In this document: piece after piece, positions 3,589 to 46,252 of the stretch
Numbering within the stretch: the stretch's first letter is position 1
How the letters are laid out: each line of letters begins with the position of its first letter
IMG/VR virus record: IMGVR_UViG_2939147180_000006
Coordinates: 1 to 54,932 of that record
Source of the DNA: a virus
Taxonomy: Duplodnaviria; Heunggongvirae; Uroviricota; Caudoviricetes
Length of the DNA stretch: 54,932 nucleotides
Direction: 5' to 3' (one strand)
The notes under the pieces: generated by a model
The model's input: the letters and a program-made list of their open reading frames with translations, nothing else
Told to the model about the DNA's origin: nothing
Database searches by the model: none
Position numbers and translations under genes: made by a program

Positions 3589-6500
3589 TTAGTCGTGTGA
3601 TTCTTCCCATTTATCCCACGTACCGTTACAACGTCCAATTAATATAGTGGGGCAACATAACTGTATTTGTGTTATATCAACCGTGGTTGGCGGCGTATAT
3701 ATCTCGATGACAACATCAACAATCTGATCTGTTACACTGTCTCTACCACAAACAAACATACCGTTGGATTGTTCATTGCCAAATTTTTTCGCATCAAGCA
3801 CTTTCACTCCGTTGATAAATGCGTTTATGTACGAACTGGATAGTAACCCTGTTAATCTTGCCTGGAATAATACGTTTTTATAGGTTCCTTCTGTTGTAGA
3901 GTCAATAAAGCGATAACAAAATCTTGCTACCCTGTAAGTAGTATTAGGTACTTTGCTACTATCAGGGAAAACGTGCATTGCTACAATGTCACCAATGAAT
4001 CTGTTGGCGCGTACAGTTCCTGTAAATGTACCGCTGTCCGCATGTATTTCACCCCTTACAACAACGTTGTTAAATTCTGATGCGCCGCTTTGTGTTATCC
4101 TCCAACCACTGGAACCAGGGACGAAGTTTGCTGATTTAATTTCATTAACAATTTTAGCCATAGTAATGGAGGCATCTGCAATTTTAGCCGTCCCTATTGA
4201 CGCATCCTTAATAAACGCCTCTTTCACATACATTGCGCCGTTAGTGACATAGAATGGCGATGTATATGAACCGTTTGCTGCGGTCATTAACACGAAACGG
4301 TCAACAAGGAAAATACACTGCGACTGAAAGTTAGTGCCGTCACCAGTAAGGCCAAGCGACATACCTGCTGCGTATTTTACGCCATTGCTATCTGTGGCGA
4401 GCTTGATTGAATATGTCGCATCAACATTACCCTTAAAGTCGGTTAATGCTTTCGATGTCGTCTCTATTGCCGTCTTATTCCCGTTAACGGTCACTGTTAA
4501 CTGATCAATTTTCGTTGACAACGCCTCGTCTGCCGTAGCCATTGTCTGCGACCATTCTGTAATACTTGCGTTTACTGATTCGAAAGACGCTGAGATCTGG
4601 CTAAATTTTTCTGCGCTTGATGTTTCATGCGTAGAGAGCGCCGTTGACACTTCAGATACTTTTGAGTTGATTGTGCTGGTAAGCGATGCGCTAAGGCCGC
4701 TTATTGCGTCTGCGCGTGCTTTTGTTTCATCGGCGATGGCTTTGTCCATCCTGGTGACGTTGCTTGTCACTTTATTATCAAGCGTGCTGACACTTGCGCT
4801 AACTTCGCTGATAGCTTGTCCTCTGGCGCTTGTTTCGTCAGCAATTGCCTGATCAAGGCGGTTAACGCTTGCTTCGGTTTTCTTATCAAGGTCGGTGATC
4901 GATGCGCTTACCCCGCTAATGGCTTCCGCTGTCGCTTTTTTCTCTTCAGCAATAACGTTGTCAATACGGTCAATTTGCGCGTTTGTTTCTCTGCGGCCTT
5001 TCTTGTATTGGGCCGTAAGAGTAACTCGCGTGTTGGTTTGAGCGATTGAGTTATTGATAAGTGCAATAGATGCGTTTTGCAGGCTTGCTTTTGCCTGATT
5101 TATTTCGTCGCTGTTTTTGCCAACATTATTTTCAACAGCGCCAAGATTTGCGCTGAGGCCTGATATTGCTTGTGCACGGGCGCTTGATTCATCGGCAATT
5201 GCCTGATCAAGACGTTTAACGCTGGCGTTTGTGTTGTTCTCAAGCGTTGTTAAGTCTGCTTTAACCTCTGTTATTGCGTCGCTTCTTGCCTTCGTTTCGT
5301 CTGATATTGCTTTATCAAGGCGGGAAACGCTGGCGTCAGTTTTCTTGTCAAGGGTGTCTATCGACGCCTTCACGCCGCTGATGGCCTGTGCGCGTGCGCT
5401 GGCCTCGTCAGCGATGGCCTGGTCGAGTCTGTTCACCTCTGATTCAGTGTTGCTTTCAAGCGTGCTGATGCTTGCATTAACGCTGCTGATAGCGTCAGTG
5501 CGCGCCTTAGTTTCGTCTGCAATCGCTTTATCAAGGCGGCTAACGTTACTTGTAACCTTGCCGTCGAGTGCGGAAATTGACGCATTCACACCGTTGATGG
5601 CTTCGGTTCTCGCGCTTGTTTCATCCGCAATGGCTTTATCAAGGCGGCTTATGCTTGAATCGGTTTTCTTGTCGAGCGCTGATACTGAGGCATTTACCCC
5701 GCTAATAGCTTCGCTGCGTGCGCTTGTTTCGTCAGCAATAGCTTTATCCAGGCGTTTAACGCTGGCGTCAGTTCTCTTATCAAGTACCGAGATACTTGCG
5801 TTAACGTCACTGACCGCCTGTGTGCGGGCGTTCGTTTCATCTGCAATAGCCTGATCAAGCCTATTGACGCTGGCATCCGTTTTCTTGTCGAGATTGCTTA
5901 TTGAGGCGTTCACACCGTTAATAGCTTCAGCGCGGGCACTAGCCTCGTCAGCCACTGCGCGTTCCACACTGGAGATCTGACCTTTAAGGTTGGAATCCAT
6001 CGCGTTCATTTCTGCCGTGATGGTTTTCAGTGATTCAGCCGTTGCTTTTTTCTCTTCAGCGATAACGTTGTCAATACGGTCAATTTCCGCTTTCGTTTCC
6101 GTTCTGCCTTTTTTGTACTGGGCGGTAAGGGTAACGCGCGTGTTTGTCTGTGCAAGCGAGTTGTTGATAAGCGCCAATGACGCGTTTTGCAGGCTTGCTT
6201 TTGCTTGCTCCAGTTCACTGCCAACTTTTTCGCTGGACACTTCTAATAGGTCAATCCTGGACTCATGCTGACCAATATCATCGGCGTTTTCCTTAACTTT
6301 TTTGTAAAGATCTTCCGTTTCTTTTTTAAGTGTATCGGTGTCAGCTTTTATTGTTCCTGTTTCTGTGATCAGGTTGTCAGTGTCAGTTCTTAAATCTTCG
6401 GTTATGTTGGTCAGGTTGTCGGTTTCAGTTCTTAAATCGTCAGTTATGTTGGTCAGGTTATCAGTTGCAGTTTTGAGGTTGTCGGTCGCTGTTTTTAGTT

Positions 6501-29413: not shown

Positions 29414-29877
29414 ACGGCATATTCAACCTCGCGGCGGTTAACCAGACCATGCCACTTTTTGCCGCCAGCGTATACCCAGCGTTTAAGCTGTGCGCACGCT
29501 TCTGATTTCTTGCCGTCATTGAGTAGCTTTAATAAGGTTGATGTTTTGAAGTTGGTTGCGCCTACGTTATAGGCGAATGAATAAAGTGCTGCGCGGGTAA
29601 AATCTGATATTTCGACTTTAATATATGGGTCAATCGCTTTTGCGGTCTTGTGTAGATCTTTATTTAACAAAGCATCGCATTCTGATTGCGTGTAAGTCTT
29701 CCCAAGCATGATGTCTTTTCCGGTGTGACCGTAGCAAACAGTCCATACACCAACAACATCACGATATGGATCGTGTTCCACGCCCTCTAATGGCTTAATC
29801 ATCACAGCCGCTATAGCGATTGCCCCACCAGCCGCCGCCGCAACAATCTTGTTTTTCAGCGATTGGCTAATCATATT
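29383..29877 (-). CDS. R: SAR endolysin (T4-lysozyme fold, phage 21 R-like)
   Basis: Start trimmed to MISQSLK; Gly/Ala-rich SAR segment [17 protein letters not shown]; catalytic E-D-T pattern [23 protein letters not shown]; close resemblance to R21 from memory. Confidence 0.85.
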
Positions 29878-30076
29878 ACTTATTCCCCATTCGTGCGTCG
29901 TGTTCCTCTTGCGCCCGCTTGTTCTCCTGTGATTTGAAGTAATAATTAACGGCAAATGTGCCTATGGTTGATAAGATACCCACAAAGACGGCAATGTCAT
30001 TGATGGTTATCGCGCCGAAAAAAGCGGTTACGGCCCCGGTCACATACGCACACGCCTCCCGTATTCTGTCGAACAT
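29876..30076 (-). CDS. S: Class II holin (pinholin, S21-like)
   Basis: 66 aa, two TM segments, charged C-terminus; GGAGG RBS; ATGA overlap with endolysin; table start at 30109 lies in the terminator. Confidence 0.75.
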
Positions 30077-30092
30077 AGATTTACCTCCAACA

Positions 30093-30118
30093 AAGCAAAA
30101 ACCCGGCACGGGGCCGGG
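30093..30118 (-). terminator. tR'-like Rho-independent terminator immediately upstream of holin
   Basis: Minus strand cccggc-cccg-tgccggg hairpin followed by TTTTTGCTTTG, ending about 10 nt before the holin RBS. Confidence 0.6.
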
Positions 30119-30146
30119 TAGTTACAGTTTCGCATTGTTAGGTAAT

Positions 30147-30176
30147 ATTTTAATCTGTTTGTTTGCGCTCTACAAA
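30147..30176 (-). promoter_or_regulatory. Candidate sigma70 late promoter (pR'-like): TTGTAG-17bp-TAAAAT
   Basis: Read on minus strand; promoter, ~45-nt leader and terminator precede the holin as in the lambda pR'-tR' arrangement. Confidence 0.45.
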
Positions 30177-30183
30177 TACGGCT

Positions 30184-30360
30184 TTACTGCTTTCTGTATA
30201 TCAGGCCATTATTTAGTAATGTTTGCATATGCCACCGATCCATGTCGCTTAATTCCCAATACGGAACATCATCAGGTCTTATCATCACCGCTTCACCTCT
30301 AACCAAATACGCGATGTTAAATACCTTATGCAAATAGATACCATCTTCGATCTCATTCAT
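30184..30360 (-). CDS. Hypothetical protein (58 aa), paralog of adjacent ORF 30357..30542
   Basis: Manually translated MNEIEDGIYLHKVFNIAYLVRGE...; shares the IEDGIY N-terminus with its neighbour; ATGA overlap. Confidence 0.4.
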   Translation of the reverse strand: MNEIEDGIYLHKVFNIAYLVRGEAVMIRPDDVPYWELSDMDRWHMQTLLNNGLIYRKQ

Positions 30361-30542
30361 AGTTCACCAAGTTTAAACAGTTCGCCTTTATCAACGTATC
30401 GCTCAATATCTTCCCTTGTTGTTTTGATGAATGGCTCTGCATATTCCTCCCCACCATCTACACTAATTGTTACAGTATCGCCTTCAACCATGTAAAATAC
30501 GTTTTCCATCAGGTTTACACCATAGATACCGTCTTCAATCAT
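30357..30542 (-). CDS. Hypothetical protein (61 aa)
   Basis: Track ORF; MIEDGIYGVNLMENVFYMVEGD N-terminus similar to the downstream paralog. Confidence 0.4.
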   Translation of the reverse strand: MIEDGIYGVNLMENVFYMVEGDTVTISVDGGEEYAEPFIKTTREDIERYVDKGELFKLGEL

Positions 30543-30775
30543 TTCTTGCGCTCCTTAATAGCTCGCTTGATCTGCTCTACCGTAGCATCGAAGAAAGCGA
30601 GAAACATAACTACAGGCCATAAAGGAATCTCAAGGCCACCAGGTTTAGCACCGCTAAACTTAATAAAACATGACATCAGGATCGCGCCAGCGATATAAAG
30701 CAAAACAATCACAGCAATAAGGCATTCAATCATAATCATCCTCATCGTCTTCGTGTTCAGCCAGGAACTCATCAA
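30539..30775 (-). CDS. Hypothetical membrane protein (78 aa, two TM)
   Basis: Track ORF; hydrophobic segments; 4-nt overlap with neighbour. Confidence 0.4.
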   Translation of the reverse strand: MMSSWLNTKTMRMIMIECLIAVIVLLYIAGAILMSCFIKFSGAKPGGLEIPLWPVVMFLAFFDATVEQIKRAIKERKK

Positions 30776-30980
30776 CCACGCGGTAAGTTACTGGCGGGAT
30801 GTATTCGAAATCATCAGAATCAAGATCAAGCGTCCGGCTGTCGCCATCGTCATCAATCGTATTCATCCCTAACTCACCGAAAGGGCCGTACCCAATGTGG
30901 CCCAGGTATTCGCATCCAGTAGTAAAGCCAGGGTATTCGCCTTTACACCTGATCTTGTATAGCTTACTTGATACGCTCAA
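30726..30980 (-). CDS. Hypothetical acidic protein (84 aa)
   Basis: Track ORF in co-directional small-gene island. Confidence 0.35.
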   Translation of the reverse strand: MSVSSKLYKIRCKGEYPGFTTGCEYLGHIGYGPFGELGMNTIDDDGDSRTLDLDSDDFEYIPPVTYRVVDEFLAEHEDDEDDYD

Positions 30981-31287
30981 TTTTCGATCCCCCGTCTTCA
31001 GATTCTGTTATTTTGTATTCCGCGATCTTTTCCGCGCCAATTAATTCGACTTCGTTTTTAGGGAAAGGATTAAGCGCCACCGCAGCAAAAGTAAATCCCC
31101 TAACTTTATTCAGATCTTCAAGATGTTTTGCATCAAAAGGCGGTTCTGATACGTGGAAGCATTTAACGTGCGCGTCGTCTTCAGTGGCTACACGGAAACA
31201 TGCGCCAGGTTGTCCGGCGAATTGTCCATGTTTCTCATCTTCTGGAAAAGTGCCACGGAAAACCTTAACGCTGATAAATTTAGACAT
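30964..31287 (-). CDS. Hypothetical protein (107 aa)
   Basis: Track ORF in island. Confidence 0.4.
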   Translation of the reverse strand: MSKFISVKVFRGTFPEDEKHGQFAGQPGACFRVATEDDAHVKCFHVSEPPFDAKHLEDLNKVRGFTFAAVALNPFPKNEVELIGAEKIAEYKITESEDGGSKIERIK

Positions 31288-31290
31288 TTA

Positions 31291-31545
31291 TTATTCTCCT
31301 TCGTAAAGAATTGCCACCAGTTCTGCATCAATTAGCGTGTTATGATCTGCATAAAACCCGTGGCGCAGAATTGAGGCAAGACCAGCCACTTTACGCCACA
31401 TAGGGGTCGATTCGTTCAGGTATTCTTTCTCCCTTTTTTCGCTGTATGGCAATTCATAAAACCGACCACGATTAACATCTTCAATCACGCGGATATATTT
31501 ACCATCAAATCGGCTATTACCGCGCCATAGTCTGATCACAACCAT
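31291..31545 (-). CDS. Hypothetical protein (84 aa)
   Basis: Track ORF in island. Confidence 0.4.
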   Translation of the reverse strand: MVVIRLWRGNSRFDGKYIRVIEDVNRGRFYELPYSEKREKEYLNESTPMWRKVAGLASILRHGFYADHNTLIDAELVAILYEGE

Positions 31546-31547
31546 AA

Positions 31548-31859
31548 TTAAAACTCCGCACCAGGTAAGCTACGCGCTTTATTTACCGCATCTTGTTTTA
31601 ACAACAAACTGGCGTGATAACTCATGTTCAACATATTGACAGCGGGTATTCCATCATTTTCCGACTTTATTCTTAACAACTGGTTTTTAGTAAAGATCCT
31701 GTCACCATCAGTTATATATAACCAGTCTCCGCGCTTACCAACTACAACATGAGATCCACCCCAACTGTCTTTAAATTCGTAATTACAGAAAACATCACCT
31801 TCAGGCACTTCAACAAAACAGCACGCTATGAATTTATCGCTTTTCATGATTTTGCCCAT
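31548..31859 (-). CDS. Hypothetical protein (103 aa)
   Basis: Track ORF; preceded by intergenic region carrying regulatory motifs. Confidence 0.4.
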   Translation of the reverse strand: MGKIMKSDKFIACCFVEVPEGDVFCNYEFKDSWGGSHVVVGKRGDWLYITDGDRIFTKNQLLRIKSENDGIPAVNMLNMSYHASLLLKQDAVNKARSLPGAEF

Positions 31860-31876
31860 CAGTCTTTCGGTGGCTT

Positions 31877-31940
31877 ATATATAACAAAACGGCACTGCCG
31901 AAACAATGCCATTTTGTATACATTGTGATAAAGATCACAT
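31877..31940. promoter_or_regulatory. Regulatory region: inverted motif TATATAACAAAACGG-N16-CCATTTTGTATA plus CRP-consensus palindrome TGTGATAAAGATCACA
   Basis: Read directly; TGTGA-N6-TCACA at 31925..31940 matches the CRP core consensus. Confidence 0.45.
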
Positions 31941-31976
31941 TTTTATTTATTCATTAAAATCAACATTATAACGCAA

Positions 31977-32189
31977 TTAATAACGCTCGAAGCTGGCGGA
32001 AAAATCAATACTTGATATCTCACCGCCTCGATAAGTAGGCCAAAAACGCCAAATATCATCATGGTCATCAATCAAGACAACATCAGTACCTATTCTGTAA
32101 CCATCATTACCATAAATGACCTTAACATCATAAGTACGCCCAGGAGTAAAAATACTCTCATTGCTTGAGTATATGCATTTAACTTGCAT
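31977..32189 (-). CDS. Hypothetical protein (70 aa)
   Basis: Track ORF in island. Confidence 0.35.
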   Translation of the reverse strand: MQVKCIYSSNESIFTPGRTYDVKVIYGNDGYRIGTDVVLIDDHDDIWRFWPTYRGGEISSIDFSASFERY

Positions 32190-32466
32190 TGTCAGCCACC
32201 TTTAAATAATTTTTCGTGTCAATATCTGCCGGATACCTGGAAAATTGCGCAAGCCATTGTCCGGTAATGTTTTTCACCAGTGCATAATCAAGATCGCCGC
32301 AGTAGAATACCTGGTACATTGTCCCTTCGTTATCATCCATAACAAAGACCATTGGATCGGTAGTCGCATTGCGCAGCCTGTGAATCGTGTAAGCCTGGCC
32401 AGTAGTGAATTTGTACTCGTTACACGTTGTGCGGCAAAACATCCGGTCAAAATAGCTTTCCATCAA
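32179..32466 (-). CDS. Hypothetical protein (95 aa)
   Basis: Track ORF in island. Confidence 0.35.
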   Translation of the reverse strand: MMESYFDRMFCRTTCNEYKFTTGQAYTIHRLRNATTDPMVFVMDDNEGTMYQVFYCGDLDYALVKNITGQWLAQFSRYPADIDTKNYLKVADNAS

Positions 32467-32729
32467 AAAATCCCCTTATAATCGACCGTGTATTTTGCTA
32501 TTAGCTTCCATTCACAATAGCTTTCCATGTCTCGCGGTTGCCAGCCTTTCATGCCTACAGCACCACGCACGCCGTGGCGACGATAATTATCGTTATAGTC
32601 AGCTACACACCACGGCTGAAGCACAAACATGTAATTGGCCTCGTTAACCAGGATCGCCATCTGCTTTCCTGTTGCCTTATCTTTCGCCCGGAAATAACTT
32701 ACCCTGATTTTCATTTTTAATAACCTCAA
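32463..32729 (-). CDS. Hypothetical protein (88 aa)
   Basis: Track ORF in island. Confidence 0.35.
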   Translation of the reverse strand: MRLLKMKIRVSYFRAKDKATGKQMAILVNEANYMFVLQPWCVADYNDNYRRHGVRGAVGMKGWQPRDMESYCEWKLIAKYTVDYKGIF

Positions 32730-32925
32730 TCAACATTTCTTCTTCCAGGTTGGCAGGACGTTTACGGAATATGCCAGCAAAAACCAAATCGTCCAGGTGC
32801 CCCCTGGTGCAAAACAGCTTTTCTTCCCTAACCCCGTCAGAATCGCACCTGTAAGTCTTATCGTTGATCAGAAAGTAAAAGCTACAGAATGAAGGGGCCA
32901 GGTAAACATCTTCGTAAACGTCCAT
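32677..32925 (-). CDS. Hypothetical protein (82 aa)
   Basis: Track ORF in island. Confidence 0.35.
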   Translation of the reverse strand: MDVYEDVYLAPSFCSFYFLINDKTYRCDSDGVREEKLFCTRGHLDDLVFAGIFRKRPANLEEEMLIEVIKNENQGKLFPGER

Positions 32926-32929
32926 GATG

Positions 32930-33172
32930 TTAACCCTCGACTACTTCCAGACCGCGCCCCTTGTCGCCCACGAAGTCGGCAAGGCTGAACGTATACGACC
33001 ATGCCGGATTGATGTAATGGTCATCAGCGCCAGCGGCAATGAGGTCAGCACCGTTAATCATGCAAGTGACACCATCACTATGAACGACGTTAACCACCTT
33101 ACCAACAACCTGTTTTAATGATGGATAACCGTGATCGTGCAAGAATTTGACTTTCACTCTTCTGTCCCCCAA
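32930..33172 (-). CDS. Hypothetical protein (80 aa)
   Basis: Track ORF in island. Confidence 0.35.
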   Translation of the reverse strand: MGDRRVKVKFLHDHGYPSLKQVVGKVVNVVHSDGVTCMINGADLIAAGADDHYINPAWSYTFSLADFVGDKGRGLEVVEG

Positions 33173-33393
33173 CGCTCAATACTGATTAAGAAGTCCCGGA
33201 TAGCGTGTCGCTCGTCGCGCGTTGGTTTGCGCTTACGGTAGATCCTGAAATCGAACCATTCTTTTTCCTGCTCAAAATCCAGGTCGTAAGCAAGCGCCTC
33301 AATGTATCCGCATTCGTGATACCAGTACGCCACGCCAGCACGAACAAAAAAGCGGGTTTTATCCCGCTTGTGCTCATAGATACGCATATTCAC
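33154..33393 (-). CDS. Hypothetical protein (79 aa)
   Basis: Track ORF in island. Confidence 0.35.
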   Translation of the reverse strand: MNMRIYEHKRDKTRFFVRAGVAYWYHECGYIEALAYDLDFEQEKEWFDFRIYRKRKPTRDERHAIRDFLISIERWGTEE

Positions 33394-33399
33394 CCCCCG

Positions 33400-33630
33400 T
33401 TATGCAGTTGTGTAGCTGTCCACCAGCTTTTCATCTTTCATTCTGGCAAGCTGATCGGTGTTCATCGTGTAGCCACCATCAGAGAAAAGCAATTCAGCCG
33501 CAGCGCGACGAAAAGCAATATCATCATGGTTACGTGTCCATGTAGCGATCACAACGCGTTTCCCGTTAGTGGCGAACATAGACAATTCATTATCAACTAC
33601 GTCGATAGCCTGCCAGATTTTTAGCTCCAT
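33400..33630 (-). CDS. Hypothetical protein (76 aa)
   Basis: Track ORF in island. Confidence 0.35.
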   Translation of the reverse strand: MELKIWQAIDVVDNELSMFATNGKRVVIATWTRNHDDIAFRRAAAELLFSDGGYTMNTDQLARMKDEKLVDSYTTA

Positions 33631-33986
33631 GATTTATCTCCGTAGATCTTGAATAGTTCACACGCTTCCTGATTTTCAAATATATTCATATGCAGGTCAC
33701 GCAGGCGGCGCATTGTGCGGAATCGCGGCCTGAACTCCTGGCTACGTTTAATGTATTTGCCGCCAATTGAATAAATATGCCCGTATGCGTACCATCTGTT
33801 ACCTACCCATATGTCATATTCTTTTCCTTCGTAATTGAATTTTATCGTTAGCTCGCCGACTTCAACTATTAACCCTTTATCAATGATGTCATTAAGCATT
33901 TCATCCCATTCTTTGAGGAATGGTTGTTGATAAAAACCAAAAAGCGTATTCACAGCATGACAAAGATAATCAATGATTATTTGCAT
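33621..33986 (-). CDS. Hypothetical protein (121 aa)
   Basis: Track ORF in island. Confidence 0.4.
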   Translation of the reverse strand: MQIIIDYLCHAVNTLFGFYQQPFLKEWDEMLNDIIDKGLIVEVGELTIKFNYEGKEYDIWVGNRWYAYGHIYSIGGKYIKRSQEFRPRFRTMRRLRDLHMNIFENQEACELFKIYGDKSWS

Positions 33987-33990
33987 ATTA

Positions 33991-34203
33991 TCACCACATC
34001 ATATAATAAACGTTCTCGTCAGCTAACATGTCAGCTACATCCTGCGTCATGTGTCTGGCCTCAAGGAAATATTCCTCACTATGCCATTCCCTTACAAGCA
34101 TACGCGCCCATTTACGGCGCTGGCGCTTATTGCGTCGCAGATCATCAAAAGCCTTTAATGCTTTGTCATATGCCCTTACAAGGCGCTTGCGGTTACTTTT
34201 CAT
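33991..34203 (-). CDS. Hypothetical basic protein (70 aa)
   Basis: Track ORF; Arg/Lys-rich. Confidence 0.35.
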   Translation of the reverse strand: MKSNRKRLVRAYDKALKAFDDLRRNKRQRRKWARMLVREWHSEEYFLEARHMTQDVADMLADENVYYMMW

Positions 34204-34206
34204 ATC

Positions 34207-34542
34207 TTAAAACCTATATTGCCAATAAATATCGCAGTTAATAGCAAAAACCTTAACAGGATCGTCACCAAATAAAGGATGTTGAATCGTCTTGATTGTG
34301 TACCCCATATAAGGAAGAATCAGTATTCGTTCTCTATCGTCGTTTGCAGGGTATCCCCATTTAAGAATCAATCTTGTATATTCCCTCCCCTCCAGGCGTT
34401 TACGCCAATAGTCATTATAAAGCCTGTATTCCTCCACCTTCTTTCCCGCCCGTATAGCGTGGAAGTATTCTCCTTTTAAATTCAAATGTAAGTGCTTATT
34501 TGCCATCACTATGATCCTGTAAACAGTCGTTATAGCCTTCAA
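34207..34542 (-). CDS. Hypothetical protein (111 aa)
   Basis: Track ORF in island. Confidence 0.4.
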   Translation of the reverse strand: MKAITTVYRIIVMANKHLHLNLKGEYFHAIRAGKKVEEYRLYNDYWRKRLEGREYTRLILKWGYPANDDRERILILPYMGYTIKTIQHPLFGDDPVKVFAINCDIYWQYRF

Positions 34543-34801
34543 TGTATCCGGTTAATCCGGTGTTACTCACTGACCATTCAGCCGAACGGCGCTTGATGGC
34601 CTTGTCCATAGTCATTTCACCTTTGCGGTGACATCCTGCATCAATGTAACGGTTGACAACTGAAGACAACCGTCCGCGTAGCTGTTGTGTTCCAGCGTAA
34701 TGGTGTGCCGTTTCCGTTAATTCGTTAACCAGTTTTGCAAATAGATGTTCCTTTAATTTAGGCTTCATTGTCGTCAACCTCGAAATACTGCTTAATAGCA
34801 C
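34496..34801 (-). CDS. Hypothetical protein (101 aa; likely starts at MKPKLKEHLF)
   Basis: Track ORF; alternative internal start reduces overlap with the upstream gene. Confidence 0.4.
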   Translation of the reverse strand: MLLSSISRLTTMKPKLKEHLFAKLVNELTETAHHYAGTQQLRGRLSSVVNRYIDAGCHRKGEMTMDKAIKRRSAEWSVSNTGLTGYIEGYNDCLQDHSDGK

Positions 34802-35105
34802 GTTTGACGTTCATTTCACGCTGATAATTGTTATCGCTATAGATTGCGGCTGCCGATACGTGATCGATAATTTGCTGTAATAAATCAGGATGAATTTTTA
34901 TTTTTTCATCAAGGACAATGCGAGATGGCTTATGTGCTGTAGCAATATCATTAACGATTTCTATCTCACCACCGCCGCCGCAGCGAGGACAAACGAATTT
35001 ATCACCTTGATACAGCATGAAGCCGCAACCTTTTTCAGTTTTTACGACCATACCATCGTCGTCGCAGTTTTCGCAATACAGCCACCCAATATTAATTATT
35101 TTCAT
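34758..35105 (-). CDS. Hypothetical zinc-ribbon protein (CxxC...CxxC)
   Basis: Start trimmed to MKIINIGWLYCENC; Cys pairs CENC and CPRC. Confidence 0.4.
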   Translation of the reverse strand: MKIINIGWLYCENCDDDGMVVKTEKGCGFMLYQGDKFVCPRCGGGGEIEIVNDIATAHKPSRIVLDEKIKIHPDLLQQIIDHVSAAAIYSDNNYQREMNVKRAIKQYFEVDDNEA

Positions 35106-35298
35106 TATCTTTATTCCGTCCGTAAATATGTACTGGCTCAACTGGTACGGCTGGCAATTCACCATCATTTAACGCGCTTGCCATACCCAATATTAATCGT
35201 GCTTCCGCACCAGTGACTTTCTTACACCATGCACCGCCAGTTTTATCTTCGAACAAGATAACAGCAAACTGATCGTTTATTTCCAGCTTATCCATCAT
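35092..35298 (-). CDS. Hypothetical protein (68 aa)
   Basis: Track ORF; 4-nt overlap with the Q-like gene. Confidence 0.35.
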   Translation of the reverse strand: MMDKLEINDQFAVILFEDKTGGAWCKKVTGAEARLILGMASALNDGELPAVPVEPVHIYGRNKDNENN

Positions 35299-36017
35299 TC
35301 ACCCCGCGTCACTCTTTTAATTTCGTTATCTGCCAGCGCCTCTTCTTTGAACAATTCAGCAATGGCGTCTTCATAGAAAGCCCGGTACTTTTTCCACCAT
35401 GTTGATCGGCTTACCGGAAAAACAAGCTGATTAACCGCCTGCCGTACAAGATCTACAGGGAAACGCGAGTACCCGCGCCCGCCGCAATGCTGGCACGTTT
35501 TGAACACTGGCATTTCCGCCGCTTCACTGGCTGCTTTATCCGGTACTTCGCCACGGCCCTTGCATTGTTTACAATGATTGCGAACTGTCCCATGCCCCTT
35601 GCATTTCTTACAAAGGTGTTTTTCTCCGTAGTCGTCAAACGTAAATTTATATCCGCCGCACTCCATACAAGTTTTTTCCGTCGCGGCACTCTGGCAATAA
35701 TCCCGAAACGCGAAAACGGCAACAAGAATAATGAGATCATTGCGTTTGGCCTCGTCCAGTTCCATAACGTATTCATAATCTTTTGCCATAGCCCTTAAAC
35801 GCTCTGTAAGCAAAACTACGGCCTTATGTTTTTCGGCTTGTGATAGTTCCATCTTCCCTAAAAAAGCGCTGTAACCAAGCTCTACGCGCGATTGCGCCAT
35901 GCCTGCTGCAGTTAGTGCATCCGTAGTATTAAGAGCATCCGGGGACGTGCCCCGGCTTTCATCTGACAAACGAGGTGATTTTGGGAAGTGGAATTTCAGA
36001 ATTGATTCCAGATTCAT
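35295..36017 (-). CDS. Putative late antiterminator Q-family protein with DnaJ-like CxxCxGxG zinc-finger repeats
   Basis: 240 aa directly downstream of ninG and rusA (canonical Q position); repeats CMECGGY, CKKCKGHG, CKQCKGRG, CQHCGGRG; family assignment from memory, unverified. Confidence 0.45.
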   Translation of the reverse strand: MNLESILKFHFPKSPRLSDESRGTSPDALNTTDALTAAGMAQSRVELGYSAFLGKMELSQAEKHKAVVLLTERLRAMAKDYEYVMELDEAKRNDLIILVAVFAFRDYCQSAATEKTCMECGGYKFTFDDYGEKHLCKKCKGHGTVRNHCKQCKGRGEVPDKAASEAAEMPVFKTCQHCGGRGYSRFPVDLVRQAVNQLVFPVSRSTWWKKYRAFYEDAIAELFKEEALADNEIKRVTRGE

Positions 36018-37396: not shown

Positions 37397-37473
37397 AATG
37401 CTCTCTCCTTTTCAGGTGATTTATACGCATTTCAGCGCTGCCGGATTTTTAAAGAGCATTTGTTTGCTTGAAG

Positions 37474-37552
37474 TATACAAAATGGATACGTCATAACAAG
37501 CTGAAAAGCGCCATTATGTGATCCGTATCACACAATGACGCCATTTTGTAAA
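37474..37552. promoter_or_regulatory. Regulatory region: TATACAAAATGG and CCATTTTGTAAA in inverted orientation flanking CRP-consensus palindrome TGTGATCCGTATCACA
   Basis: Read directly; TGTGA-N6-TCACA at 37517..37532; intergenic between C5-MTase-like gene and ninG block. Confidence 0.45.
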
Positions 37553-37554
37553 CT

Positions 37555-38337
37555 TCAGTCAGGCAAAACACGGTTAAGCGTAGTACGATTGATGGCCCTG
37601 TCGTTAGCCAGGAATACAGCACGGGCAAAGCCGCGCGGCGTTAGCGAGCGGATCATCTTTGTTCGTTTCGTCCGGCCTCCAGTTTTAGACCATCCCGGGT
37701 TATCACCAGAGTTAAGATCTACAGGTCTGAAAAGCGGTTGTTTAAATCCGTTACCGCACCAAATACAAGTTTTCTTTGTATACGCGTCGCGCGACGGGTA
37801 AACATCCTGGAAAGCAGGATGCTTGTCATCTTCCGGCAGGTAGCCACCGTAAGCGCAAGGATTAAAGATAAAATCCGGTTTACGCCATAACGTTGACAGT
37901 GCGCCCACCGGATTTTCCACCATCCACGGCACGTTATACATATTTGCCAGTTTTTCTACAATTTTTGCGTTATACGCCGCCTTTACCTGGAAGCCAGGAT
38001 CTTTTTTTCGCTTATCAGCGAACCAGCGAGCGCCAGACACAGCGAGATCGTCGCATGGAGGAAAGCCCAAGATAATGTCAGGCTCTGGATAAACAGACAA
38101 TTCAGGGGAGAACATTACCAGGAAATGGCTGTCAATCCATACGTTAACATATTCAATATTCGGATGAATGATTTTAACGCCTTCATAATCGCCGTGGTTT
38201 GCGCCGTCATAGTTGAAGCAATAGCACTTATATCCAGCATCCGCCCAGTCTTTAACGGCATATCCGCTGCCGTCGTACAGCGACCACACAACCCAGCTTC
38301 TAAGCCAATTATTTAACCAGTGTTTAGCCTTGCTCAT
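37555..38337 (-). CDS. Putative DNA cytosine-C5 methyltransferase (compact, divergent)
   Basis: 260 aa; motif-I-like SLYDGSGYA, motif-IV-like GFPPCDDLAVSG, motif-VI-like WMVENPVG; target-recognition region short. Confidence 0.5.
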   Translation of the reverse strand: MSKAKHWLNNWLRSWVVWSLYDGSGYAVKDWADAGYKCYCFNYDGANHGDYEGVKIIHPNIEYVNVWIDSHFLVMFSPELSVYPEPDIILGFPPCDDLAVSGARWFADKRKKDPGFQVKAAYNAKIVEKLANMYNVPWMVENPVGALSTLWRKPDFIFNPCAYGGYLPEDDKHPAFQDVYPSRDAYTKKTCIWCGNGFKQPLFRPVDLNSGDNPGWSKTGGRTKRTKMIRSLTPRGFARAVFLANDRAINRTTLNRVLPD

Positions 38338-44504: not shown

Positions 44505-44795
44505 TTAATGGTAACGGACTTTATCAAGGGGTTTTTCCCCTAAATGGCGTGGTTGCGTTGCGTGGTAGTAGTTGCCGCTTTCATTTTCCGTATACCATTT
44601 TACTGCTCCTTTGCGACGTTCTTTAATGCTATTTGGTTTGCATCTTTCCTCGTTTGCAAAGCGAATAGCTTTATCCACATTGTCTGTTTTATTAATTGCA
44701 GGTGATGATTTTCTTTCGTTTTCTCTTTTTATTCTTCTGCGTTCCCTGGCATTCAGTTTACTGTCACATTTGCCATACATGATTGTAACTGTCAT
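44505..44795 (-). CDS. Putative N-type antiterminator (P22 gene 24-like) with arginine-rich motif
   Basis: 96 aa; N-terminus MTVTIMYGK...NARERRRIKRENERK (ARM-like); first gene downstream of the pL-type region. Confidence 0.5.
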   Translation of the reverse strand: MTVTIMYGKCDSKLNARERRRIKRENERKSSPAINKTDNVDKAIRFANEERCKPNSIKERRKGAVKWYTENESGNYYHATQPRHLGEKPLDKVRYH

Positions 44796-45298: not shown

Positions 45299-45946
45299 TT
45301 ATGGCAGGTTTACGATCTTCGCATCCACTACCACGCCTATGATTTTAGATTCTGGATTCATAGGGATTGGCGGATACAGCGGATTGAGAGAACGTAAAAG
45401 CCTTTGACCTCCATCAATAACAAGCTGTTTAAACGTAGGAGTTTGCCCTTCCTCCAGTTGGGCTATAACCAGTTTTCCGTCAATAGCTGGCGCGTGCGGA
45501 TCGACAAGTATCATCGTCCCCGCTGGTATACTCAATCCTTGCGGCGCGTTCATTGATTCTCCTTTAGCCACCAGCCAATAACTATCATCTGAACAAATAA
45601 CGCTAGTTGTAACGTGTGGTAATGTTGATCGCCTTGCATCTTCCATATTGTTTACTGCATCCTTCCAGTCAACAACCGGGTAACTGCCTAAATCACGCGG
45701 TGGCGCTCCCGGTAACGTGTTAGAAACAGAATCATCTATGACCATCCCATCATGTGTGACAGTGAATTGCCGACGCCCAAGCGCCCGCATAATCCGCGCA
45801 ATATCTTCAAGATTTGGCTCACGGCGACCGTTCAGCCAGTGCGACAAGCCGCCTTTTGTTATCCCCATGAGATCAGCCAGTGAATCCTGACTCATGCCCT
45901 GCGCCCGCATGAGTTGTTTTGCCAAGTCATACCATTTTGTTTTCAT
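45299..45946 (-). CDS. cI: CI/C2-type prophage repressor (HTH_XRE plus S24 LexA-like peptidase)
   Basis: 215 aa; N-terminal HTH QDSLADLMGITKGGLSHWLNG; C-terminal GESM...FKQL Ser/Lys dyad; C-terminus KIIGVVVDAKIVNLP as in P22 C2. Confidence 0.85.
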   Translation of the reverse strand: MKTKWYDLAKQLMRAQGMSQDSLADLMGITKGGLSHWLNGRREPNLEDIARIMRALGRRQFTVTHDGMVIDDSVSNTLPGAPPRDLGSYPVVDWKDAVNNMEDARRSTLPHVTTSVICSDDSYWLVAKGESMNAPQGLSIPAGTMILVDPHAPAIDGKLVIAQLEEGQTPTFKQLVIDGGQRLLRSLNPLYPPIPMNPESKIIGVVVDAKIVNLP

Positions 45947-45949
45947 GTC

Positions 45950-46100
45950 GCTACCCTATAAGCTAAAAAAGTTTGATGCAAGTCACAAAATGTATTTTTC
46001 AATCCTTGACCTGTTAACGCCATTCTGTAAACTTGCAGACAAGGTAAGTCCATACTTGCAAGGATGCAAGAAAAAAGATAATGGAAAGCACAAAAGGAAC
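45950..46100. promoter_or_regulatory. Immunity-region operator/promoter region (OR/PR/PRM equivalent) with CTTGCA/TGCAAG palindromic half-sites
   Basis: Divergent intergenic region between repressor and rightward operon; repeated CTTGcagaCAAG, aCTTGCAAGg, gaTGCAAG; TTGACC -35-like hexamer. Confidence 0.4.
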
Positions 46101-46252
46101 ATACCTTAAAAGCTCTTTAAAAATCCGGTGTCGCTGCGAAGCGAAAAACAAATATCACGCAACGGCGGGATCTGTTGAGCGGTCAGTCACTGCTATCTAA
46201 TGCTAATTGGATGCCCGCCAGCGCGTTCACTCTAACCATAGGAGAAAACACG

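Follow-up and report, generated by a model that had tools for sequence, protein, structure and literature searches.

The subject of this study is an island of small genes in IMG/VR virus record IMGVR_UViG_2939147180_000006, a 54,932-nucleotide stretch of DNA from a member of the Caudoviricetes, which was analyzed over its entire length and is referred to here as the window. The island fills the interval between the Q antiterminator gene and the holin gene. Our analysis indicates that this interval is probably a variable accessory-gene region of an mEpimmI-type phage, in which the island would form the end of an early operon and the late promoter would follow the island rather than precede it. 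The island belongs to the variable region of an already described phage group. A previous sequence-only reading of the window had reported about 20 small co-directional open reading frames (ORFs) between a Q-like gene and the lysis genes, and both the array and its flanks were recovered: 20 ORFs, here o01 to o20, lie on the minus strand and are transcribed from 35298 to 30184. The upstream anchor matches the Q protein of PDB entry 7ubm (7ubm_Q) over both domains (E 8e-40) as well as Pfam family PF03589 (103 bits against a cut-off of 26.7, E 1e-29), and is 83-99% identical across 51 related loci. Downstream, the holin gene, 92-100% identical in relatives, is followed by lysozyme and Rz, whereas the RusA and NinG homologues are located upstream of Q and outside the island.

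The resulting gene order, NinG-RusA-64aa-Q-...-holin-lysozyme-Rz, is that of the mEp021-group phages, and megablast matches were restricted to this group (mEp554, mEp010, mEp044, mEp013, mEp021, mEp515 and MagusPhagus), with E. coli prophages matched in 34 of 5426 complete E. coli genomes. The matches were 84-92% identical and covered only 34-84% of the interval. Judged by its sequence, the window phage is a member of the mEpimmI (mEp021) group of temperate coliphages. These have been described as Nus-dependent, non-lambdoid temperate phages carrying an N-like protein (Gp17), three nut sites and a Q-like protein, with about half of their genes being "flexible" and clustered in variable regions (PMC11893012, Negrete-Mendez et al., 2025). 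The lambdoid assignment made in the sequence-only reading needs correction, the group having been published as non-lambdoid (PMC11893012), although lambda-type Q and N-like systems are present. The same paper contains no analysis of the Q-holin interval, of paralog families, of a late promoter (the term "late promoter" has 0 occurrences) or of the gap cassette described below (PMC11893012).

The comparison set comprised 51 related loci carrying both anchors, Q and holin (7 phage or E. coli prophage records, mEp021, and 43 of 45 IMG/VR loci; codes such as L002 designate single loci), or 52 including the window. A presence/absence comparison across the 52 loci revealed widely differing gene content. 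Q stop codon and holin ATG are separated by at least 2.0 kb (in mEp021) and at most 6.8 kb, with 5.2 kb in the window, and the pooled islands contain 54 ORF families of at least 38 aa. Five genes, o07-o11, which correspond to mEp021_38 to mEp021_42, occur in 52/52 loci and have ratios of nonsynonymous to synonymous substitution (dN/dS) of 0.06-0.16; o06 occurs in 51 of the 52 loci and the other non-core ORFs in 6-48. Because mEp021 lacks 12 of the 20 window ORFs, it is unlikely that any gene outside the core is essential for plaque formation on K-12. According to these data, the island consists of a five-gene core (o07-o11) with an arm on either side; arm genes are acquired, deleted, exchanged and sometimes fused in frame from one phage to another. 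The combination of cassettes in the window, with the infrequent o12 and an uncommon allele of o10, was seen in none of the 51 other loci. Some island genes have relatives further afield: o04 homologues of 50-60% identity occur in 330 phage records, often adjoining the EaA early genes of Stx and P22-like phages, and o09 homologues with ~41% identity are found in rV5-like virulent coliphages.

Single loci illustrate how cassettes are rearranged. In L056/L057, an extra 75-aa ORF is inserted after o20 and is bordered on both sides by a direct repeat of GCCGTATTTGTAGAGCGYAAACA, which shows the mode of cassette entry. In-frame chimeric ORFs were observed in L006 (mEp013; 4003-4299, Q-to-holin orientation), L008 (6782-6979) and L031 (11319-11552). 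Each unites N-terminal sequence from one island family with C-terminal sequence from a different one, as when a member of the o13 family runs into o19; deletions between adjacent cassettes apparently gave rise to them.

With 58-136 aa the ORFs are short, they lack a curated family, and the GC content of the island is slightly low (0.405-0.443, compared to about 0.45-0.51 over most of the remaining window), features that would suit a reading in which many of them are spurious, noncoding frames in an AT-rich spacer. This reading has next to no probability, being refuted by two properties of the array. When compared to homologues in the 51 loci, 20 of 20 window ORFs had dN/dS values of 0.05-0.46 by the Nei-Gojobori method (dS 0.07-1.8; for comparison, dN/dS was 0.11 for Q and 0.04 for holin), that is, below 0.5 for every ORF, and the annotated frame was the best of six for each of the 20 in a codon-usage log-likelihood test trained on 22 long ORFs outside the island. 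Conservation and periodicity, on which the sequence-only reading had staked its gene array, thus hold for all 20 ORFs. Profiles of the PHROG database match 16 of them, mostly over their full length, two have confident AlphaFold2 (AF2) models, and ribosome-binding-site (RBS)-like motifs and stop/start coupling are seen at the gene junctions. We conclude that all 20 ORFs are real genes.

Their start codons were refined from RBS-like motifs, from the N-termini seen in relatives and from genes called independently in three further assemblies, in which the gene sizes are identical. With the refined starts, 19 of the 20 junctions fall between a 38-nt overlap and a 12-nt spacer, the sole exception being a gap of 117-129 nt at 31860-31976. 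Morons as defined by Hendrix and colleagues carry a promoter and a terminator of their own for each inserted gene and deviate in base composition; since the spacers at 19/20 junctions do not exceed 12 nt, the ORFs are not individual units of this kind. Promoter-like or terminator-like signals of moron type are confined to the cassette in the gap, and GC content lies merely slightly below that of the flanks.

The sole noncoding block kept in all 52 loci (33 unique sequences) spans ~100 nt before the holin RBS and reads AAACAA..GATTAAAATA.T..CTAACAATGCGAAA.T.TA...CCCGG-(variable loop)-CCGGGTTTTTG.TTTGTTGGAGG. It harbors a candidate PR'-like promoter, whose -10 hexamer, AACAAT element and surrounding sequence are invariant over the 52 loci, and an intrinsic terminator consisting of a 7-bp GC-rich hairpin (30119-30101) and a U-run (folding free energy, dG, -21.8 kcal/mol; z -3.35). 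The terminator stem is invariant in 31 of the 33 unique sequences, the loop being variable, and its position is equivalent to that of TERM_5 (score 100) in the mEp021 record MH706966. New cassettes insert upstream of the -10 hexamer, and the block stays attached to holin (L056/L057). In phage lambda (J02459), PR' (TTGACT-17-TAAATT-TGACTC-AACGAT) is situated ~80 nt after Q, with tR' at about +194; the candidate promoter of the window parallels PR' in its layout. Proteins of the Q-lambda family, whose solved complexes are 7ubm and 7ubn, load onto RNA polymerase paused just past the promoter and need an adjacent sigma70-dependent pause. Given this loading at a promoter-proximal pause and the location of the conserved block, we place the late promoter before holin and the island upstream of it. 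That a late promoter with a pause element and a terminator lies after the island and before holin appears reasonably likely from the sequence features described.

Several points weigh against this placement. The -35 hexamer TTGTAG is weak, its TTG is absent in 13 of the 52 loci, and the late promoter is called at the level of consensus matches. Moreover, the invariant CTAACAATGCGAAA has complementarity to the U-run and to sequence near the RBS, and its conservation could reflect RNA structure instead of a pause element. The published, experimentally shown "t5" could not be confirmed as the GenBank TERM_5, and the presence of the gp41 orthologue in CsCl-purified virions fits late expression better (PMC11893012). 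In the presumed short leader RNA (30085-30140, minus strand), the terminator hairpin can be lengthened through pairing of UAACAA.GCGAAA with UUUUGC.UUUGUUG that stops immediately ahead of the holin Shine-Dalgarno sequence; in this way, holin translation might be linked to termination or to the structure of the leader.

The location of the late promoter bears directly on the comparison with the stx site. In Stx phages and lambda, stx-type cargo lies downstream of PR'/tR'. If the island were a late-operon moron hotspot of this type, PR' and its terminator should be Q-proximal, with Q-modified polymerase reading both the ORFs and the lysis genes. The island does occupy the same Q-to-holin position as in Stx phages, the hairpin conserved in its core gene o08 could in principle act as tR', and it encodes a virion-detected protein (o10, the gp41 orthologue; PMC11893012). 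However, there is no intergenic space after Q, the stop codon of which overlaps the next start in the window (o01) and abuts or overlaps the next start in mEp021, where a different gene follows (o07). In a scan of the Q gene, neither a promoter nor a terminator was matched on the minus strand. The sequence preceding the o08 hairpin matches -10 and -35 sequences poorly and must also encode an RBS and a start codon; a PR' inside o07/o08 with the o08 hairpin serving as tR' was rejected on account of the poor promoter matches. The invariant block of -10 hexamer, pause-like element and terminator adjoins holin instead. A late-operon hotspot is thus unlikely, and the equivalence to the stx site drawn in the sequence-only reading is probably wrong, given that the putative PR'-like -10, pause-like element and terminator at 30175-30092 are downstream of all 20 ORFs.

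In the early-operon model that we favour, the island would represent the distal part of a delayed-early rightward operon. Transcription would start at a repressor-proximal promoter near 45.15 kb and proceed through NinG, RusA, Q and the island, with an N-like protein conferring terminator resistance at nutR-type sites and thereby read-through of the hairpins at 33369-33350 and 31917-31884. Q would then act 2-7 kb downstream of its own gene, at the late promoter before holin. The island genes would be early accessory genes resembling the nin/ea genes of lambda, not late-operon morons like stx. Two features speak for an early character of these genes: a nutR-like site, a boxA-like GCTCTTTAAAAA with a hairpin, is located upstream of the island at about 37457-37425 on the minus strand, and o04 homologues neighbour EaA early genes in other temperate phages. 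Should the late promoter indeed follow the island, the Q gene and its site of action would be 2-7 kb apart with exchangeable cargo between them. This arrangement would bear on the old question of Q cis-preference in lambda, and the cargo would be expressed early, not late.

Further elements of the early regulatory region were noted in the window. Nut-like sites, in which GCTCTTTAAAAATCCGG precedes a short hairpin whose loop is A-rich, are present at ~37457-37425 (minus strand), upstream of the nin-like genes and equivalent to nutR2, and at 46112-46140 (plus strand), at the start of the divergent operon and equivalent to nutL. A 215-aa CI-like repressor (45299-45946, minus strand), in which a helix-turn-helix and an S24-like C-terminal domain were judged by reading the sequence, is followed on the same strand by a 96-aa protein (44505-44795) with the arginine-rich motif ARERRRIKRENERK, a likely homologue of the N-like Gp17. 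Possible operators, CTTGCA-N4-TGCAAG, are found at 46055-46070.

Two hairpin regions lie within the island. The first is the terminator-like hairpin inside o08, where ACcCGCTTTTTTGT is invariant or nearly so over 43 unique sequences and ARNold predicts a terminator (T9) at the corresponding position of mEp554; without antitermination, this hairpin might restrict read-through. The second is the gap at 31860-31976, which the sequence-only reading had described as promoter-like. The gap is real, but it folds as a conserved terminator-like double hairpin (dG -28.3 kcal/mol, z -6.6) and looks more like a terminator cassette; a reading as a simple sigma70 promoter was rejected for this reason. Its first hairpin, TGTGAT-cttt-ATCACA, forms a perfect TGTGA-N6-TCACA (31924-31939), and its long hairpin (31917-31884), ACAAAATGGCATTG-tttcgg-CAGTGCCGTTTTGT, has 14-bp arms followed by a U-run. 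The cassette is kept in five of six relatives compared (L002-L005 and L008) and absent in mEp021, and ARNold terminators are annotated at this position in the GenBank records of mEp554, mEp010 and mEp044. In relatives, the cassette is followed by a 46-aa ORF and a second hairpin, both of which are deleted in the window. Because ~190 nt including this ORF have been lost next to the gap, the true start of o14 is probably ATG 31847.

The gap cassette could alternatively be an autonomous promoter, possibly activated by cAMP and its receptor protein (CRP), which would drive o14-o20 from the prophage up to the pre-holin terminator as a lysogenic-conversion moron; this would be compatible with an early operon ending before holin. 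Its palindrome agrees with 18 of 22 positions of the 22-bp CRP consensus and contains the perfect core, and the window holds 7 sites with at most 1 mismatch compared to 1.6 expected. Further in its favour, the palindrome centre is followed at a distance of ~61.5 bp downstream by TTGTTT-17-TATATA with a TG motif, in relatives a separate 46-aa ORF equipped with an RBS comes after the cassette, and the sole predicted membrane protein, o18, is encoded in the arm that would be driven. Nevertheless, we consider this rather unlikely. The sequence folds as two strong hairpins with a U-run, coinciding with an ARNold terminator in three relatives, the half-sites are degenerate in L002, L004 and L008, and TGTGAT/ATCACA palindromes elsewhere in the phage are terminator stems. 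In addition, the -10 lacks the conserved final T, and mEp021 is devoid of the cassette.

A second perfect TGTGA-N6-TCACA is located at 37517-37532, between a DNA methyltransferase gene and a NinF-like ORF. It is part of a hairpin with 15-bp arms followed by TTTTCAG, nested in a 27-nt inverted repeat (region 37459-37567), and this hairpin is probably TERM_4 of mEp021. Of note, the 13-mer GTATACAAAATGG occurs 16 times in the window with at most 2 mismatches, compared to 1.8 expected. Four copies are in the immunity region, one of them directly upstream of the strong early promoter TTGACT-17-TATATT and one overlapping the -10 of a divergent promoter. Several copies constitute the 5' arm of long AU-rich hairpins, and several adjoin TGTGAT/ATCACA palindromes. 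PMC11893012 makes no mention of the 13-mer, which could represent a dispersed element with a role in regulation or termination.

The sequence-only reading had also singled out o19 and o20 as tandem paralogs, and pairwise alignment proved significant (BLASTP E 1e-5; hhalign 95.7% probability, E 9e-9, 53 columns). Both match phrog_15318 over its full length (profile positions 1-58 of 60; E 7e-19 for o19 and 9e-31 for o20). In the full-length alignment, I-E-D-G-x-Y and Y18 are invariant and G22, V25, D50 and G52 near-invariant. An exhaustive HMMER search of the o19/o20 profile against 1.84 billion representative proteins gave 15 hits at E<=1e-3 and no distant relatives, and every named match in two word-index searches was from E. 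coli. The AF2 model of o20 (predicted local distance difference test score, pLDDT, 92.7; predicted template modelling score, pTM, 0.76) has a beta3-(beta)-alpha-beta fold, with 3-4 strands, a helix and a final strand. The same small fold is predicted for o10, which is probably a third member of this family, and residues 18-46 of o06 weakly resemble the C-terminal helix of o19 (hhalign 53%). With dS values of 1.4 and 1.8, respectively, o10 and o19 are the most divergent island genes; their dN/dS of 0.16-0.18 points to an exchange of old alleles and not to recent positive selection.

A second family is represented by o13, whose sub-clusters 3, 4, 5, 6 and 11 are 30-40% identical over their full length and which is present in up to two adjacent tandem copies in relatives (e.g. 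L012, 11191-11397/11411-11626; L028, 11699-11923/11920-12135). The o13-family profile aligns with o12 (hhalign 83%, E 9e-6, 69 columns), making o12 a distant member and o12/o13 a second adjacent, distant pair. The two small families, o19/o20 (probably together with o10) and o12/o13, are confined to this phage group. A large superfamily joining o13, o17, o19 and o20, as obtained by single-linkage clustering, was discarded, as its links are in-frame chimeric ORFs and hhalign gave no support for o17.

The o10 orthologue of mEp021, gp41, was identified by mass spectrometry in CsCl-purified virions, was named a "virion structural protein" and is described as conserved in all genomes; the preparation also contained the early protein Ssb (PMC11893012). 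One core gene is reported to have its product in virions, and this product apparently has the fold of the variable tandem pair with which the island ends. The virion data, together with the occurrence of o07-o11 in 52/52 loci under strong purifying selection (dN/dS 0.06-0.16), would agree with the core being a small morphogenetic or virion-associated module and with the arms alone being accessory. We judge this quite unlikely: the genes are remote from the structural cluster and precede the lysis genes, the detection of Ssb in the preparation makes co-purification possible, the o10 fold is common to the dispensable, variable o19/o20, and none of the core genes o07-o11 matched a structural-protein family. 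As a long shot, o10, o19 and o20 may constitute a fast-diversifying, phage-group-specific family of 58-82-residue beta3-alpha-beta proteins, encoded in a cassette-exchange island between Q and a late promoter 2-7 kb from the Q gene. With the gp41 orthologue being packaged, such proteins would counteract defences of the host or of prophages upon injection or at a very early stage, and tandem copies and divergent alleles would provide different specificities.

The sequence-only reading had recognised none of the ORFs, and indeed nothing exceeded the curated thresholds in Pfam and NCBIfam (all 20 ORFs) or PADLOC (o01-o10). PDB sequence searches with six ORFs gave no match (o02, o04 as single sequence and as profile, o06, o10 and o16: nothing at E <0.04), and Foldseek against BFVD returned merely small uncharacterized phage proteins at E >= 0.015. 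No match to a characterized anti-defence inhibitor (Acr, Tad, Ocr/Ard-like) was found by sequence or fold, no nin family was above the Pfam/NCBIfam threshold among the 20 ORFs, and tRNA and Rfam scans of the window were negative, with no toxin, tRNA or other known moron cargo in the island. The zinc ribbon of the CxxC...CxxC type noted previously corresponds to o02, which carries two CxxC motifs, not the four repeats of DnaJ_CXXCXGXG (PF00684; 17.2 bits, below the cut-off of 32.7). Q itself contains, in all relatives, an insertion of ~33 aa (residues 115-147; window 35574-35674) with extra CxxC motifs compared to lambda Q, which scores 26.3 bits against DnaJ CxxCxGxG, below the 32.7 cut-off. 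A derivation of o02 from this Q insertion was rejected, the likeness being limited to the CxxC motif (E 0.013). For o04, the match to ASCH (PF04266) stays below the gathering threshold (16.2 vs 21.2 bits) and is restricted to profile positions 1-25. This weak match is repeated in seven of nine family members. PDB 2z0t was matched at E 0.47-0.81, and some homologues have been named ASCH or RNA-binding by other annotators, so an ASCH-like fold is plausible.

Roles of the island products, as small soluble and mostly acidic or basic proteins, in host takeover, counter-defence or exclusion, by binding components of the host or of competing phages, are conjectural. An anti-defence or host-takeover function, as suggested in the sequence-only reading for such arrays, is a reasonable prior that gains no support from the present analysis. 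The island constitutes a reservoir of small phage genes without known relatives in prevalent, little-studied gut coliphages. Its main value should lie in offering a defined, naturally variable gene set (54 families, 52 loci), the presence/absence variants of which can be screened against E. coli defence systems.

Table 1. Coordinates of the island genes, their anchors and the associated sequence elements in the window (pI, isoelectric point; fractions give the number of loci with the gene)
Feature	Coordinates	Strand	Description
Q antiterminator	35295..36017	-	240 aa; upstream anchor; Q-lambda family
o01	35092..35298	-	68 aa; start overlaps Q stop (ATGA); flexible; phrog_35000 E 1e-40; 47/52; dN/dS 0.10
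o02	34758..35105	-	115 aa from ATG 35105 (mechanical ORF start 35168; independent calls also 115 aa); flexible; 23/52; dN/dS 0.20
o03	34496..34768	-	90 aa from ATG 34768; basic, pI 9.2; flexible; phrog_29262 E 1e-41; 45/52; dN/dS 0.25
o04	34207..34506	-	99 aa from ATG 34506; ASCH-like / "RNA-binding protein"-like; flexible; phrog_625 E 2e-37; 39/52
o05	33991..34203	-	70 aa; basic, pI 10; flexible; phrog_8758 E 1e-23 (C-terminal half of the profile, 151 positions); 48/52; dN/dS 0.19
o06	33621..33986	-	121 aa; nearly core; phrog_16975 E 5e-61; 51/52; dN/dS 0.075
o07	33400..33630	-	76 aa; core; mEp021 gp38 orthologue (98% identical to mEp021); phrog_38280 E 1e-50; 52/52
o08	33154..33387	-	77 aa from ATG 33387; core; gp39 orthologue; phrog_30442 E 1e-51; 52/52; dN/dS 0.059
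Terminator-like hairpin and T-run inside o08	33350..33369	-	AAGCGGGATAAAACCCGCTT TTTTGTTCG
o09	32930..33157	-	75 aa from GTG 33157; core; gp40 orthologue; phrog_5009 E 6e-29; 52/52
o10	32677..32925	-	82 aa; core; mEp021 gp41 orthologue; divergent allele in window
o11	32463..32714	-	83 aa from ATG 32714; basic; core (gp42 region); phrog_38609 E 7e-57; 52/52; dN/dS 0.10
o12	32179..32463	-	94 aa; rare cassette, 6/52 at 93-98% identity
o13	31977..32189	-	70 aa; multi-copy family (KC...F.G..Y...D.DGD.W); 24/52
Gap cassette, conserved noncoding	31872..31945	-	two hairpins
o14	31548..31847	-	99 aa; ATG 31847 (MKSDKFI) placed by alignment with relatives; flexible; 36/52; dN/dS 0.19
o15	31291..31545	-	84 aa; flexible; phrog_32200 E 9e-54; 31/52; dN/dS 0.26
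o16	30964..31287	-	107 aa; flexible; phrog_23107 E 8e-56; 47/52; dN/dS 0.36
o17	30726..30980	-	84 aa; very acidic, pI 4.1, D/E-rich tail; flexible; phrog_25234 E 4e-54; 44/52; dN/dS 0.13
o18	30539..30745	-	~64-68 aa; sole predicted membrane protein (maximum Kyte-Doolittle 19-residue window 2.76); flexible; phrog_10061 E 5e-24; 45/52; dN/dS 0.46
o19	30357..30542	-	61 aa; acidic; tandem paralog of o20; identical to protein P0067 from E. coli assemblies; 37/52; alleles 27-86% identical; dS 1.8
o20	30184..30360	-	58 aa; tandem paralog of o19; last island gene; 41/52
Candidate late promoter (PR'-like)	30134..30175	-	TTGTAG (30175-30170), 17 nt, TAAAAT (30152-30147), ATTACCT, AACAAT (30139-30134)
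Intrinsic terminator	30092..30119	-	ACCCGGC-CCCGT-GCCGGGT then TTTTTGCTTTG; 24 nt before holin ATG
Holin	29876..30076	-	66 aa; HP1-family; PF16080 E 2e-14; first late gene, downstream anchor
GTATACAAAATGG sites	11057, 12969, 16200, 16229, 20214, 24108, 31909, 37473, 37541, 41065, 45176, 45643, 45932, 46020, 49804, 52721		13-mer

Among known systems, the island is matched by the variable regions of the mEpimmI phages, which have the same synteny and the same core genes (gp38-gp42 orthologues) and whose products are all annotated as hypothetical (PMC11893012). It further resembles the nin and ea/exo-xis regions of lambda in consisting of small, co-directional, tightly packed and probably translationally coupled ORFs that are mostly dispensable and subject to mosaic exchange. 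As in an array of the nin type, overlapping or abutting stop/start ORFs are found downstream of a nutR-like site, and membership in one operon would follow from this layout. In contrast to the nin region, which lies between P and Q, the island is located after Q, and none of its ORFs matched a nin family above the Pfam/NCBIfam threshold. With the moron hotspot of Stx phages and lambda (stx, bor, orf-64) it shares the Q-to-lysis location and the variable cargo. There, however, the cargo is downstream of PR'/tR', whereas in the window the PR'-like element and the terminator appear downstream of the cargo. Finally, the pre-holin block can be compared to PR'-qut-tR' of lambda, each being associated with a Q-lambda-family protein and with a strong intrinsic terminator that precedes the first late gene. 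The -10 is TAAAAT in the window and TAAATT in lambda, and 7 nt instead of 6 nt separate it from the -10-like element AAC(A/G)AT. Unlike PR' of lambda, the window module is 5.2 kb from the Q gene (2.0-6.8 kb in relatives), its -35 is weak or absent, and it bears no recognisable similarity to the lambda Q-binding element. With its terminator ~20 nt after the presumed start, it predicts an RNA of ~45-50 nt, compared to the 194 nt of lambda 6S RNA.

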